Shown here: positions 6,001 to 12,000 of the stretch, in pieces | Layout of the letters: the number at the start of each line of letters is the position of its first letter | How positions within the stretch are numbered: position 1 is the stretch's first letter | Origin: a bacterium | GTDB taxonomy: Bacteria > Hydrothermota > 32-111 | DNA: 19,674 nucleotides | Reading direction: 5' to 3' | Assembly: GCA_050239825.1 (NCBI GenBank) | Contig: JBFXGO010000040.1 | Span: 1-19,674, forward strand | Position numbers: made by a program

Positions 6001-9000
6001 CTTGAAAAACAGATTGACGGACTTATAGTCATAGGCGGCGACGGCACTCTCAACATTGCTCATCAGCTTTTTAAGAGAGGAGCCAACATAGTCGGAGTTC
6101 CGAAGACCATAGACAATGACCTTTCAATGACTGATTATACATTCGGATTCTTCACTGCCGTAAACACCGCCTCTGAGGCAATAGACAAACTTCATACGAC
6201 TGCCGAGTCCCATCACAGAATTATGATTGTTGAGGTTATGGGGAGGGACGCCGGATGGATAGCATTAAATTCCGGCATAGCAGGAGGAGCAGACATAATA
6301 CTGATTCCCGAAATACCGTTTGATCTTGAAAAGATAGTGAAAAAAATAAATCTGCGAAAAGAGAGGCAGTCTCATTTTTCCATTTTGGTTGTGGCGGAGG
6401 GAGCATTTGAAAAGGATAAGAACAGGCAGTATATTGAGAATGCAAAAAACGATGGAACTCTTCCCAGATACGGAGGTATCGGAAATTATATTGCGTCAAA
6501 ACTCTCGGATATGACCGATATGGAGGTGAGAACAACAGTTCTGGGACATGTGCAGAGGGGAGGCTCCCCCACTCCTTTCGACAGGATACTTGCATCCCGC
6601 TTCGGAGTCGAGGCGTGCGACCTGATAGCCCAGATGAAATTCGGATATATGGTTTCCCTTCAGGGCAAAGAGATAACTTCGGTTCCAATTGAAAAGGCGA
6701 TAAACAATCAGAAACTCGTAGACCCTTACGGACAGCTTGTTGAAACAGCCCGTCGGCTACAGATAGAGATGGGAGACTGATGCGGATACTTCTCATAACC
6801 CCTTTTCCGCTGGTGGCATCCCAGAGCGGCATTTACACAAGAGACATAGCGAGATTTTTCTCATCCGCCGGTAATGAAGTTATGGTTGTTAATTTTGACA
6901 ACAAAGAGACTCTGTACACGGAGCCTTTCAGGATACACACGATTCTTTTCGGAAAAGAAGACAGCAAGGTAATGTTCCCCTGTTTTACAACCCACCCCCA
7001 CACGGATTTTACTTTTTCAAAGATTACCAATTCCCAGCTCAACAATTACATACTGTTTGCAAGGGAAAAAATCAAGAATATCATACATGAGTTTGGTCCG
7101 GACATTATACACTCCCAATACCTCTGGGTTTCAACAGAGCTGGCAAGCGAAGCATCAGGCAAGATTCCTCTTATCTGCACCAGCTTCGGAAACGAGAACG
7201 CCGCAATGGCTGAGGATCCAAGATATGCGGATTATGTCAAATATGCGGTTGAAAAATCCCGTTTCATCATAGCTCCTTCAAAGCAGATAGAGCTTCAGCT
7301 GAGAGGAGCTTTCAAGCTTGATGCAATCAAGCTTAAACTCATATATAGAGGATATGATGATGACATTTATAAATTCATTGACGATAATTTTGAAATTTAC
7401 AGGGAATATTTCGGAATAAACGACAAATGCAAGCATATAGTGCTGTTTTCCGATCCGATAAATTACATGAAAGGAATAGATGTATTTCTCAAATCCGCAG
7501 TAAAGATGATTGAAAAGCGCGATGACATCTGTTTTGTAATCGTGGGTAAGGGAGATTTTTCCAAAGAAATTGAAACTCTCTGCGAAACTTACAAACAGAA
7601 CATCCTCTATCTCCCCTCAATCACCGATGAGGAGAAGCCGTCGCTTCTTCATATTTCCGACATAACGGTCATTCCATCGCGCTTTGAACAGTTCGGGACA
7701 AATGCTCTTCAATCTCTTGCTATGGGCACTCCTGTAATATCATCCAATGTGGGCGAACTCCCGTTTTTCGTCAATAATGAGAATGGAAAAGTTCTTGAAG
7801 ATATCTCCGAAGAGTTTCTCTCAACCGCAATAGAAGAGATTCTTGACAAAAATTTAAAATCAAAAGTCAGGTTTTTCTGCCACCAGTACGCAAGCAGAAA
7901 CTACTCAAAAACATCAGGCTTGATGCTACTGCAGAAACTCTACGATTACGCAGTCAGCGAGAAGTGAAGGAGGAGTTATATGGAAATTAAAAAAATCGGA
8001 ATTGCAGGGAGCGAAACAAAACAAGATGTACTTGTCAAAGTGGAGCCGGGCCAGAACGGCATTGAAATTAAAATCACTTCCACTCTCGGAATGCTCTATT
8101 ACACCCAGATAGCCTCATCCGTCGATGAAACAGTGAGCAGGTATGGAATTGCAAATGCTTTGATAACAGTCATAGACAGCGGAGCTCTGGACTATGTAAT
8201 CAGAGCGCGCACAGAATCTGCAATCCTGAGGGCATCGCAGGAAATAGAGAAAAAATTCTACGCTGACAAGAAGGATGCGGAGTATAAACTCAGAAGAAGC
8301 AGATTGTATCTTCCGGGGAATAATCCATATCTGATGCAGGGAATAACATACTATGGAGCTGACGGAACAATACTTGACTTGGAGGATTCTGTGCCTCTTG
8401 AAGAGAAAGATTCTTCAAGAATCCTGGTTGCATACGCATTGAAGAACATAGATTTCGGCAGGTCTGAAAAGATGGTGAGAATAAACTCTATTGATGTATG
8501 CGGAGCCGAGGACATTGAAGCTGTTCTTCCTCAGAAGCCTAATATCATTCTTGTTCCGAAGTGCGAGACAGAGTATGATGTTAAAAAGGTTGTTGAAATT
8601 TTGGAGAAAAATGAGAAGAGGTTCAATCTTTTAGGATATCAGGCAAAGATAATACCTATAATTGAATCTGCGAAAGGCGTCGAAAATGCCTATGAGATAG
8701 CCACAGTATCTGAGAGAACCGTTGCCCTGGCATTCGGAGCCGAAGATTATACAGTCTCTCTCGGGGTGAAGAAAACCGCTGGAGAGGAGGAGCTCTTATT
8801 CGCCAGACAATCAATTGTAAATGCCGCGAAGGCCGCAGGAATACAGGCTTCGGATACAGTTTATTCCAACATAGAGGACCTTGAAGGACTTAGAATAAGC
8901 ACGGAAAAATCAAAGGTTCTCGGTTTTGACGGAAGAGGGGTTATTCATCCCTCGCAGATAGAGATTGTTCATCAGGTATTCATACCCTCCGATAAAGAGA

Positions 9001-12000
9001 TTGAAGAGGCAAATGAGATAATCGATGTTTTCAACAAAGCAAAAAAAGAGGGCTCCGGAGTTTTGAAACACAAGGGCAAGATGATAGACATGCCTATAGT
9101 ATTGAGGGCTAAACGGATTCTTTCCGTCGCCAAAACAATAAATCAGGAGTAGAGATGTTTTGCAAGAATAAAGTCAACAGAGAGATTCCGGACAAAATAG
9201 ACGGAAGAGAGCTTAAACCTTTTTCAGGCGCTTTCAGTGTGTCTCCGCAGGGGAAAAAATTTGCTTCAAAACTTTCCGTATCAAAACCTGCCGACGACAA
9301 GCTTTGCAAAAACCTGAGAGAGGCTCTCGAAAGGGCGCATGTCAGGGACGGCGCAACAATCTCCTTCCATCACCATCTGAGAGAGGGAGACGCAGTTGTG
9401 AATATGGTTATTGATGAAATAGCGCGGATGGGCATCAAGAATGTCACGGTCTTCCCGACAGCACTTTTTGCCGTGCATGAGAAACTTATAGAGCATATCA
9501 AATCAGGAGTCATATCGAAAATTGAAGGTTCACTGAACGGACCCATCGGAAGGTTCGTCTCTGCAGGAAATATGAAGAGTGTATGCGTTTTGAGAAGCCA
9601 CGGAGGAAGAGTCAGAGCGGTAGAATCCGGAGATATAAAAATAGATATAGCTGTAATAGCTTCTCCGACAGCCGATGAATACGGCAACTGCTCAGGTCTT
9701 ACAGGAAAATCAGCATGTGGTCCTCTGGCATACGCTGACATTGACTCACGGTATGCTGATAATGTCATTGTAATTACGGACAATCTCGTAAAATATCCTC
9801 TTGTCCCCCATTCAATTCCCTCCACAAGGGTTGACTCTGTAGTCAATGTGGAATCCATCGGAGACCCTTCGCTGATTGTCACCGGCACTATGAGGATAAC
9901 AAAATCCCCCACCCGCCTTCTTATTGCAAAATACTCTGTGGATTTTCTCGACATAATCGGTTATATCAAAAATGACCTCACATTCCAGACCGGAGCCGGA
10001 GGAATCTCTCTGGCAGTTACTAAGTTCATGGCGGATAGGATGAGGGAAAAGCAAGTCAAGGCAAAATTTATAAACGGCGGAATAACAAAATTCGCAGTCG
10101 ATATGCTTAAAGAGGGACTGACTGATTCTCTTATAGATGTCCAGTCCTTCGACCTTGAAGCAATAAAATCAATGAGCGAAGATAAGAGGCACTTTGAATG
10201 TTCAGTTGACGAATATGCAAATTACTTTTCAAAGGGATGCTTAGTAAACAAGCTTGATGTGGGCTTTCTCGGAGCCACTGAGGTTGACATCGACTTCAAT
10301 GTGAATGTGAATACTCACACAGACGGACTACTGCTTCACGGAATAGGCGGACATCAGGATGTGGCGGCGGGATGCGACATAACTATGATAACAATACCGG
10401 CTTTCAGAAACAGGCTTCCGATAATTCTTGATTCCGTCACCACCGTCACCACCCCGGGCGAGACTGTCGATGTTGTGGTGACTGAGATGGGAATCGCCAT
10501 AAATCCTCTGAGAAAAGATATTATCGAAAAAGCAAAGAGCATCAGATCAATTCCTATCATGGAAATAAACGAAATGAAGGATAAAATCGAAAAGATCACA
10601 GGAAAGCCCGACAGACCCAAGAGGAAGGAAAGAACGGTTGCTTTAATCGAATACAGGGATGGCACAATAATAGACACAGTAAGAGAGGTTTGATATGGCA
10701 AAAATTCTCGCTATAAACCCGGGAGCCACTTCAACAAAGGTTGGGCTCTACGAAAATGACAGAGAAATTTTCAACGAGGCTGTGCGTCACTATAAGGATG
10801 ACATACAGAAGTTTTCCAAAACAATTGACCAGCTTGACATGAGAGTCTCCCTGATAGAAAAATTCCTCAGTGATAAAAACATACCCCTTGATTCTATAGA
10901 TATTTTCGTAGCGAGAGGCGGACCTTTCAAGGCAATGAAGTCAGGCACCTATGCGGTAAATGCAAAAATGATCAATGATGTTAAAAACGAGAGGGTTCTC
11001 GCCGACCATGTGTCAAATCTCGCTTGCCTGATAGCCGATAAACTTGCAAGAAAAGGACAGCCCAAGTATATTGTAGACCCTGTATCTGTAGACGAGTTTG
11101 ACGATATAGCTAGGGTGTCCGGACTCAAAGAGCTTGAAAGAAAATCACTTTCACATGCATTGAATATGAAGATGGTCGCAAAGAGATGGGCAAAGGAGAA
11201 CAATGTGGATTATTTGAAATCATCCCTTATAGTAATCCATCTCGGAACCGGAATATCGGTTTCCGCTCATAAAGACGGAAGGATGATAGATGTCAACAAT
11301 GCCAATGATGAGGGCCCCTTTTCTCCTCAGAGATGCGGCACTTTGCCGGTTACACAACTTGCGAAATTAGCATCAAGCGGCAAATATGACTATAGCGCAT
11401 TAAAAAAGATGCTCACCTTTCAGGGCGGATTGTTCTCTTATATGGAGACAGACAGTGTTCCGGAAGTTATAAATCTGATGGAACAGGGTGACAGCAAGGC
11501 AAAACTGATACTTGAAGCCATGATGTATCAGGTTTCAAAAGAGACGGGAGCAATGGCGACAGTTCTCTATGGCAGAGTTCATGCGATTATTATCACAGGC
11601 GGCATCGCATATAACAGAGTGCTCACAGAGATGATTAAAAAGAGAACATCATTTATTGCCCCCGTATTCATTTACCCCGGCGAAGACGAAATTCTTGCCC
11701 TTGTCACCGGAGTGTTGAGAGTGATTAACAATGAAGAGAAGGAGCTTGAGTACTAATGAAATTCAGATTTGGGTTTTTAATTATTCTGCTCTCTCTATCT
11801 ACGGCCGCTGAGCAGATACCCATTCCGCCTCTCTATCCGACTTCAACTCCATCTGCAAGGATAAAAGGCCTCGGCGGAGCAGGCACATCTCTGTATCCGG
11901 ATGCTTCGGCCCCCTATTGGAATCCTGCTATGCTCGGCGGGCTTGAAGCCGCGGCGATCACAATGACTTTTGCCGAAGAGGACAGCTCTTCCTTTGCCCG

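Follow-up and report, generated by a model that had tools for sequence, protein, structure and literature searches.

The ATP-independent citrate lyase of Escherichia coli (citCDEFXG, EC 4.1.3.6) shares all three subunit families with the locus described here, and the Arg, Glu and Asp residues of CitE are kept. The locus differs in that, in the window (the whole 19,674-nucleotide stretch of bacterial DNA that was analysed), CitD is fused to CitE, Ser14 of CitD is replaced by Lys, no CitC, CitG or CitX was found and the gene neighbourhood is another one. The same two-gene architecture, as far as it can be likened by description only, is reported for Ignavibacterium album, in which IALB_1147 encodes a CitE-CitD fusion and IALB_1146 encodes CitF (PMC3362086). 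The passages of that report that deal with the pair take it for an ordinary citrate lyase, with no mention of the serine, of genes for loading or of hydratase partners. The fusion was thus already in print, contrary to the first-pass annotation, whose searches had found no description. Our literature search, in which subscription journals were poorly covered, returned no paper that describes a CitD lacking the serine or a homocitrate route used catabolically in reverse.

Other described systems resemble parts of the locus. The MdcA/MdcC pair of malonate decarboxylase (PDB 5vit) shares the carrier fold and the family II transferase with the window, and the helices of the MdcC carrier dock on the MdcA transferase (PMC5534430); MdcC, however, keeps its Ser25 and needs MdcB and MdcG, and the window contains no decarboxylase subunits. 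The Hydrogenobacter-type CcsAB plus Ccl system likewise performs a two-step cleavage via a free CoA thioester, and its homologs occur in the same module in citF-less relatives, although the folds are unrelated and activation is ATP-dependent, in place of the CoA transfer expected of the window pair. The alpha-aminoadipate pathway, in its first half (homocitrate synthase, aconitase plus homoaconitase, and homoisocitrate dehydrogenase), has in common with the module discussed below HacA-family hydratases, the presence of two hydratases and a motif of the homoisocitrate dehydrogenase (HICDH) type. In contrast, neither homocitrate synthase nor LysX, which together mark the biosynthetic LysW pathway, was found in the source genome (G000), and a reversible transferase/lyase pair, proposed to work backwards, takes the place of the synthase.

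The fusion gene and citF

Profile searches of the window bore out the earlier description of citD fused to citE with citF next to it, and gave the following features.

7969..7975, + strand: ribosome-binding site GGAGGAG of the fusion gene, seen on sequence inspection directly 5' of the ATG at 7980
7980..9152, + strand: CitD-CitE fusion ORF, 390 aa, matching the CitD profile and then the CitE profile
7980..8249, + strand: CitD/MdcC-type carrier domain, residues 1–90, without the attachment serine (PF06857, E 1.6e-18)
8019..8021, + strand: codon AAA for Lys14 at the position of the prosthetic-group serine, by alignment with E. coli CitD Ser14 and the MdcC serine
8247..8273, + strand: flexible linker between the carrier and lyase domains, residues 90–98, the only part with pLDDT <50
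8286..9152, + strand: CitE-type acyl-CoA lyase TIM barrel (PF03328, E 2e-57)
9155..10693, + strand: CitF, family II CoA/ACP transferase, alpha subunit (TIGR01584, 598 bits, cut-off 501; PF04223)
10695..11756, + strand: butyrate kinase directly 3' of citF (TIGR02707, 435 bits, cut-off 289)

The carrier domain scores 83.6 bits against TIGR01608 (cut-off 63.5) and, in the predicted structure, is a separate, confident alpha/beta fold. The CitE profiles (PF03328/TIGR01588) match residues 103–386 of the fusion, with a TIGR01588 score of 294.8 bits that is under the equivalog cut-off of 443, and the nearest solved folds to this part are CLYBL and malyl-CoA lyases (Foldseek E 8e-25 to 5vxc). Arg167, Glu229 and Asp256, which we take to be the catalytic conserved Arg and metal-binding Glu and Asp, are intact here and do not vary among the 87 non-orphan fused copies; residue 254 is Ala, as in serine-type CitE, and Leu in 80 of those 87 copies. 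CitF has the PDB matches 2hj0 and 1xr4. Identity to the E. coli subunits is 26–30% for CitD, 39% for CitE and 43% for CitF, and the three family domains that make up a canonical citrate lyase are encoded together. The butyrate kinase is a family-level neighbour that holds the same position in the loci of the family (L049–L055), also where citF has been lost. A promoter and terminator scan yielded nothing usable.

Attachment position and loading genes

Alignment sets T13-K14-Q15-D16 of the window against E13-S14-G15-D16 of E. coli CitD. As a literature statement of the CitD Ser14 site was not found, Ser25 of MdcC, the attachment site of that protein (PDB 5vit_C; PMC5534430), served as the anchor, and the attachment serine was defined as the residue two before the conserved Asp. 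Ser14, the position named in the first-pass annotation, aligns with this anchor. Of the two serines that it considered lost, the attachment Ser14 is indeed Lys, and this is the only one that matters. Its statement that none of 12 family copies has serine at either position stands for the attachment position (six Lys, five Pro and one Asn) and fails for the neighbouring one, at which one copy (G014) has Ser; the serine retained in sister families is present, but lies one residue before the Asp and not at the attachment site. Among 120 homologs, Lys or Arg occupies the attachment position in 119 (63 Lys, 56 Arg, one His and no Ser), and 76 fused GTDB loci have 70 Arg, five Lys, one Ala and no Ser. 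A quick CitF tree placed the Lys/Arg type on its own side (43 rows against 9, SH-aLRT 100); it holds 52 of 92 rows, after random removal of 40 fused Arg-type rows, is midpoint-rooted and gives no order of events.

Profile searches of the source genome (98.97% complete, 67 contigs) detected no CitG, no CitX and no CitC over the cut-off, with a positive E. coli control each time, and tblastn with E. coli CitC, CitG and CitX gave no match, in agreement with the earlier claim. The reported lack of CitG now extends to 0 of 151 genomes of the phylum sample, and the count of the fusion in the class was reproduced: a CitD-like domain occurs in 14 of 19 genomes, always in frames of ~390–450 aa, and citF in five. 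CitG was detected in 2 of 50 genomes and CitX in 2 of 80; these are the same two genomes, both with a serine-bearing CitD. One genome (G178) carries a full serine-type citD-E-F-XG-C operon plus a separate fused Arg-type cluster. Because Lys stands at the attachment position, CitC, CitG and CitX were not found, and CitG and CitX were detected only in genomes that also have a serine-bearing CitD, the pair very likely works with free CoA and no covalent arm. Comparative genomics supports the free CoA thioesters of the first-pass annotation well; citrate as the substrate is doubtful, as partner genes suggest homocitrate.

In such a mechanism, CitF would transfer CoA from free acetyl-CoA to the tricarboxylic acid with release of acetate, and CitE would split the resulting thioester into acetyl-CoA and a 2-oxo acid; since this cleavage would regenerate acetyl-CoA, CoA would act catalytically and CitC, CitG and CitX would be unnecessary. 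The serine-less carrier would tether the two catalytic parts to each other, and the conserved Lys/Arg in it may touch the phosphates of CoA. The term vestigial scaffold undersells a domain with a conserved basic residue, which is replaced by Pro or Asn in six citF-less genomes of one genus (g2). Complex prediction for the carrier domain and CitF is weakly supportive (0.55 against 0.00 for the best control), with runs agreeing in 100% of contacts and a partner pLDDT of at least 85; the mark applied is attained in 116 of 157 solved pairs and in 2 of 215 mismatched ones, and at values up to 0.60 by only 18 solved pairs and both mismatches. A comparable complex, MdcA-MdcC, has already been solved. 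If the free-CoA reading is true, the pair would be a natural citrate-lyase-type enzyme without a prosthetic group and would show a carrier protein retired into a structural part.

Partner genes and a proposed reversed homocitrate route

In many phyla, genes for an HD protein, an enzyme of the homoisocitrate dehydrogenase type and two distinct hydratases lie clustered with the pair. Near the pair in 100 loci lie a beta-decarboxylating dehydrogenase (40), aconitase-family genes (41), the HD protein (38) and PrpD (23); no dehydrogenase was seen in 60 loci, many of which are incomplete. In the 39 loci with a hydratase large subunit, type a has type b as its partner in 12 and PrpD in 21, and no locus pairs type b with PrpD. 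The HacA-family hydratases exceed the TIGR01343 cut-off. Homocitrate isomerisation in fungi and Thermus needs two enzymes, whereas a single aconitase suffices for citrate (PMC3556520). The dehydrogenases carry GA(I/T)TS and SPIV in 58 of 58 copies, and SPIV is also the motif of Schizosaccharomyces pombe homoisocitrate dehydrogenase (3ty3); isocitrate dehydrogenases read S-x-N-V, an Asn that the partner enzyme does not have. Two dehydrogenase homologs from the clusters, scanned with NCBIfam in place of the copy of the source genome, were below every equivalog cut-off, their best models being AksF (247 and 266 bits, cut-off 540).

In the source genome, the dehydrogenase (contig C12), the hydratases of both types and the HD gene are all present, spread over four contigs other than this one, and their tie to the fusion/citF operon is therefore borrowed from other genomes. 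Within the class, the dehydrogenase tracks citF exactly (both in 5 of 19 genomes, neither in 14). In eight genomes without citF, an SCS-like ligase pair and/or a citryl-CoA-lyase-type gene stands beside the module genes (both in six), and one further citF-less genome (G008) has an ICL/PrpB-family gene in the lyase slot; the pair is thus interchanged with other lyase sets. The HD protein occurs in 34 of 36 citF genomes, and an ESM Atlas search with it returned unnamed HD clusters only.

The partner genes favour a chiral homolog of citrate, most likely homocitrate, so that citrate itself is probably not the substrate; a homocitrate-type substrate appears reasonably probable. There is a strong probability that the module runs in the catabolic direction. 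We propose, with a probability of about 0.5, that the pair completes a homocitrate route operating in reverse, in which the overall conversion is 2-oxoadipate + CO2 → 2-oxoglutarate + acetate and lysine breakdown provides the input. The HICDH-type dehydrogenase would convert 2-oxoadipate from lysine, CO2 and NAD(P)H to homoisocitrate, the two hydratases would carry this via homoaconitate to homocitrate, and CitD*-CitE with CitF would split homocitrate into 2-oxoglutarate and acetate, ending a reversed 2-oxo-acid chain elongation.

Lysine 6-transaminase is encoded in the source genome (622 bits, cut-off 521) and in 12 of 13 family relatives, citF-less ones included, and so does not discriminate within the class. 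A lysine entry enzyme was counted in 33 of 36 citF genomes versus 38 of 115 others, a comparison in which kin are not independent and 'long' saccharopine dehydrogenase is set at E <1e-69, a limit of our own choice. In 3 of 100 loci, citDE is immediately preceded by AlaDh/PNT-family genes that we interpret as lysine-ketoglutarate reductase; two of these loci also have saccharopine dehydrogenase. As a within-family marker saccharopine dehydrogenase was discarded, because its short form occurs in all 14 family genomes and gives no discrimination. Classical lysine fermentation was rejected, Kce not being found in five of five genomes tested. In the source genome, the candidate semialdehyde dehydrogenase is over no family cut-off, and LysX, Kce, homocitrate/citrate synthase, LysA and SucA gave no match.

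The genes that accompany the pair suggest that it splits homocitrate, as part of an undescribed route of lysine breakdown, and does not ferment citrate. Genomes with the pair are now read as citrate fermenters or as running the reverse TCA cycle. Should homocitrate be the substrate, these metabolic models would be mistaken, and a way of degrading lysine that is common in digesters, sediments and soils would have gone unnoticed. A cultured carrier of the fusion is on record in I. album, as described in those passages of PMC3362086. A wider reading, which we put at somewhat under even odds, is that the pair represents an old, multi-phylum branch of citrate lyase that lost the covalent arm, exchanged the serine for a basic residue that grips CoA, and turned into a homocitrate CoA-transferase/lyase. 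It would be one of at least three interchangeable end-pieces of a CO2-consuming lysine breakdown by reversed chain elongation, possibly run twice (2-oxoadipate → 2-oxoglutarate → oxaloacetate, with acetate released at every pass), and would be common among uncultured anaerobes that degrade peptides, under the mistaken annotation of citrate lyase or reverse TCA.

Alternative substrates and chemistries

The main alternative, which we regard as possible and somewhat doubtful, applies the same free-CoA chemistry to citrate (2-oxoglutarate → isocitrate → citrate → oxaloacetate + acetate), which would serve to degrade glutamate or proline, to ferment citrate or to run an unconventional reverse TCA cycle. 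CitF is over the citF equivalog cut-off, the replacement set is annotated as citryl-CoA lyase, and citrate fermentation or the reverse TCA cycle is suggested for the I. album fusion in the passages concerned (PMC3362086). The source genome also has a glutamate-semialdehyde dehydrogenase and, on contigs other than that of the fusion, the CitMHS-family carrier and the OadA/PycB-like ORF that the first-pass annotation had listed; the carrier family recurs in two other citF genomes and is missing from two citF-less relatives. In keeping with citrate, glutamate-semialdehyde (P5C) dehydrogenase is found close to citDE as frequently as lysine genes are, in 4 of 100 loci. Against citrate speak the recurrence of two hydratases where one aconitase would do (PMC3556520), the lack of the isocitrate dehydrogenase Asn, the separate canonical operon of G178 and a citrate-synthase-family match in 39 of 80 genomes, nearly all carriers of the pair, four of these matches being weak and partial. 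This count also led us to reject the pair as a simple citrate-synthase stand-in in all carriers. All module steps are reversible in principle, and the module might run forward as a substitute synthase, from acetyl-CoA and 2-oxoglutarate (or oxaloacetate) through (homo)citryl-CoA to (homo)citrate, with the thioester conserved as acetyl-CoA and with 2-oxoadipate, longer 2-oxo acids or 2-oxoglutarate as products. The source genome has no Si-citrate synthase, no homocitrate/isopropylmalate synthase over the cut-off and no LysA match, which favours such a role; we nevertheless consider it unlikely, as LysX was not found there and hence no LysW route from aminoadipate to lysine, the lyase slot of G008 holds an ICL/PrpB-family gene, and a citrate-synthase-family gene is in any case present in half of the genomes tested.

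If the substrate were a smaller alkylmalate (citramalate, 2-methylcitrate or dimethylmalate), the pair would connect 2-oxobutyrate or propionyl-CoA with pyruvate and acetyl-CoA. This reading would accord with the PrpD-family partner, with the resemblance of the CitE fold to citramalyl-CoA and malyl-CoA lyases and with the methylmalonyl-CoA epimerase and decarboxylase genes that adjoin citDE in ~10 of 100 loci. It is quite improbable: the dehydrogenase motif is of the homoisocitrate and not the IPMDH type, and 2-methylisocitrate is a tertiary alcohol, which this dehydrogenase family is not known to oxidise. True glutamate mutase (PF06368 over the cut-off) occurs in 1 of 151 genomes, which is citF-less, and a methylaspartate/citramalate lyase was rejected on this lack of co-occurrence. 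Continued loading of the carrier, at Lys14 or at a different residue and with, for example, the HD protein as the loading enzyme, seems very improbable. The near-constant presence of the HD protein in citF genomes, with no assigned function, would suit such a role, but CitG, the maker of the precursor, was not found, Arg is as frequent as Lys at the attachment position, and the HD gene also stands beside the carrier-free ligase/lyase set.

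The gene pair and the attachment position

The feature is real. The ORFs and domain matches agree with the first-pass annotation, which had described CitD fused to CitE with citF next:

7980–9152, CitD-CitE fusion (citDE), 390 aa
9155–10693, CitF, 512 aa, starting two bases past the fusion ORF, profile score over the cut-off
From 10695, butyrate kinase, behind citF

Residues 1–90 of the fusion form a CitD-type carrier (TIGR01608, over the cut-off) and residues 103–386 a CitE-type lyase (TIGR01588, under the cut-off). The AlphaFold2 model (mean pLDDT 91.5) has two confident domains joined by a loose linker (90–98), and structure comparison placed CLYBL and malyl-CoA lyases as the closest folds to the CitE-type barrel. 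Elsewhere in the window, a 1215-aa ORF (1264–4911), which by eye resembles a cyclase-like, ATPase and TPR-repeat protein, has a conserved place in the family. The sources of close homologues give them the name WOR-3, which makes the genome a probable member of that phylum.

E. coli CitD G10-T-L-E-S14-G-D16 aligns with G10-S-E-T-K14-Q-D16 in the window. We take Ser14 to be the number of the CitD attachment serine; no published statement of it as the attachment site was found in the literature searched. The position was therefore anchored on the homologue MdcC (PDB 5vit_C, aligned from residue 19), in which Ser25, the attachment site according to the accessible text of PMC5534430, lies two residues before the same Asp. 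Among 120 homologues this position holds Lys in 63, Arg in 56, His in one and Ser in none; in 76 fused loci of GTDB genomes it holds Arg (70), Lys (5) or Ala (1). The residue adjoining the Asp in the 120 homologues is often Ser yet variable (Ser 68, Gly 34, Ala 12, Gln 4 and two others), so the one serine that sister families were noted earlier to keep lies outside the attachment position. Lys or Arg likewise occupies the attachment position in stand-alone CitD genes of the phylum sample, so the serine change is independent of the fusion. The 12 copies in the window's family comprise six Lys, five Pro and one Asn; the Pro and Asn copies all belong to genus g2, which is without citF, and Lys is retained in three citF-less genomes of the family.

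Loading genes and free-CoA operation

In G000, the genome of the window (98.97% complete), neither CitG nor CitX was found and nothing matched CitC over the cut-off, which bears out the earlier claim that citC, citG and citX are missing, and CitG was found in none of the 151 genomes of the phylum sample. The canonical roles of these proteins are described in the accessible parts of PMC10798043 and PMC2996986. Among genomes behind the GTDB loci, CitG occurs in 2 of 50 (50 of 80 were searched) and CitX in 2 of 80. Both genes come from one and the same pair of genomes. In G200 the CitD carries the Ser; G178 combines a complete serine-type citD-E-F-XG-C operon with a separate fused Arg-type cluster. 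In these sequences, the presence of loading genes tracks the serine. Control loci included nine CitD genes with Ser, with citC, citX or citG in the surrounding region examined for five, and one Lys-type stand-alone CitD with citE, citF and an adjoining aconitase-family gene (G249, L171:8263–12890). In a CitF tree built by a quick method from 52 of 92 rows, 43 rows fell on one side (40 Lys/Arg, the window, and one row each of the Ala and Val types) and eight Ser rows with the G249 row on the other, where the latter perhaps marks a second, independent serine loss.

In classical enzymology, the alpha and beta subunits of citrate lyase, once isolated, take CoA thioesters as substrates in vitro. 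The pair in the window is predicted to work like these CoA-transferase and lyase halves, yet two defining tests place it outside canonical citrate lyase, and its operation with free CoA is very probable. Modelled in complex with CitF, the carrier domain scored 0.55 against 0.00 for the best control, in a benchmark where scores of 0.60 or less occurred in 18 of 157 solved pairs and in both passing mismatches of 215. A like complex has already been solved, and the model weakly suggests that the carrier domain binds CitF.

Partner genes, substrate and direction

The survey took in 100 loci, of which 20 were regions from this phylum and 80 were GTDB loci (Bacteroidota, Ignavibacteriota, Acidobacteriota, Cloacimonadota, Gemmatimonadota and others), with at least one genome counted twice and many loci truncated. 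The pair had aconitase-family neighbours in 41 loci, a beta-decarboxylating dehydrogenase nearby in 40, an HD protein of ~190 aa in 38 and MmgE/PrpD in 23. Of 39 loci in which a hydratase large subunit was present, 12 combined two aconitase-family types, a and b, 21 combined type a with PrpD and six had a single type; type b never occurred with PrpD. G000 carries the dehydrogenase and type b on contig C12, type a on C22 and the HD gene on C41 (L158:8871–9392, about 175 aa), and has no PrpD. Within the class of 19 genomes, citF and the dehydrogenase occur together in five and neither in fourteen. In the phylum sample, the dehydrogenase is present in 33 and the HD protein in 34 of 36 citF genomes, and in 29 and 23, respectively, of 115 genomes without citF.

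These partners suggest, with a probability of about 0.5, a reversed homocitrate route fed by lysine breakdown, in which 2-oxoadipate and CO2 would give 2-oxoglutarate and acetate; the same chemistry on citrate is the main rival and appears unlikely. Biosynthetic homocitrate is the (R) form, and from this stereochemistry we infer that a CitE-type lyase would handle its mirror image, the (S) form, so that a second hydratase specialised for it, PrpD for example, would be needed. Citrate is isomerised by one aconitase, and homocitrate by two enzymes in fungi and Thermus and one in Methanocaldococcus (accessible text of PMC3556520). All 58 dehydrogenases collected have GA(I/T)TS and SPIV motifs. 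Thermus homoisocitrate dehydrogenase has GAATS, the S. pombe enzyme has YSSPIVALR at the same place in a short, weak-scoring alignment, and isocitrate dehydrogenases have S-x-N-V there. Most of the hydratases tested scored above the cut-off of the HacA family. On the side of citrate, a glutamate-semialdehyde dehydrogenase lies nearby in four loci, and a CitMHS-family carrier is present in three citF genomes and absent from two citF-less ones. The fusion itself has been published for I. album, where the accessible text reads it as citrate fermentation or an unconventional reverse TCA cycle (PMC3362086). The earlier finding of no description thus does not extend to the fusion; for the serine loss, as for the reversed homocitrate route, no published account was found in the literature searched.

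As to the direction, G000 has a lysine 6-transaminase over the cut-off, DapA, DapB and a methylmalonyl-CoA mutase, no match to SucA, SucCD or GltA, and no LysX or Kce. A lysine entry enzyme (lysine 6-transaminase or long saccharopine dehydrogenase) occurs in 33 of 36 citF genomes versus 38 of 115 others, counts in which kin are not independent. Three Cloacimonadota loci have an AlaDh/PNT-family gene, read as a putative lysine-ketoglutarate reductase, directly upstream of citDE, two of them with saccharopine dehydrogenase too, and in one (L079) the cluster runs on into citF, the dehydrogenase, HD and both hydratases. Against the lysine link, the 6-transaminase is also present in citF-less family members. 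In G000, which has no LysA match, dapA immediately precedes the genes of the type-a hydratase (L157:7600–10249, contig C22). In six Bacteroidota loci (L062, L074, L110, L117, L120, L132), methylmalonyl-CoA epimerase and decarboxylase genes are followed directly by citDE-citF, which hints that the 2-oxoglutarate product may feed propionate formation.

Other lyase sets and fusions without citF

Whatever the lyase set, the HD gene accompanies the module. The search for replacement lyases covered 20 dehydrogenase regions, 19 of them in citF-less genomes, and 20 regions centred on the HD gene, 14 of them citF-less. Beside the HD gene, six citF-less genomes (G148, G132, G127, G068, G131, G012) encode an SCS-like beta/alpha pair together with a gene of the citryl-CoA-lyase type, and partial sets occur in citF-less G144 (lyase) and G145 (ligase pair). 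In G008, the dehydrogenase and a LeuCD-type hydratase flank an ICL/PrpB-family gene (L187:9306–13439), a possible CoA-independent third end-piece. The remaining regions contained no lyase. Since the replacement sets have no carrier protein, they support, indirectly, a lyase slot filled by free-CoA chemistry.

The fusion is kept in nine of the fourteen class genomes without citF and the dehydrogenase, which reproduces the count raised earlier as a caveat. Six such orphan fusions (L050–L055, from the family relatives G014, G033, G007, G027, G044 and G049) were examined. The conserved lyase residues Asp256 and Arg167 were each lost in five, and both are kept in all 87 other fused copies. Metal-binding and substrate residues of the six have been rewritten in stages, and these proteins are possibly pseudo-enzymes or may have taken on a new function.
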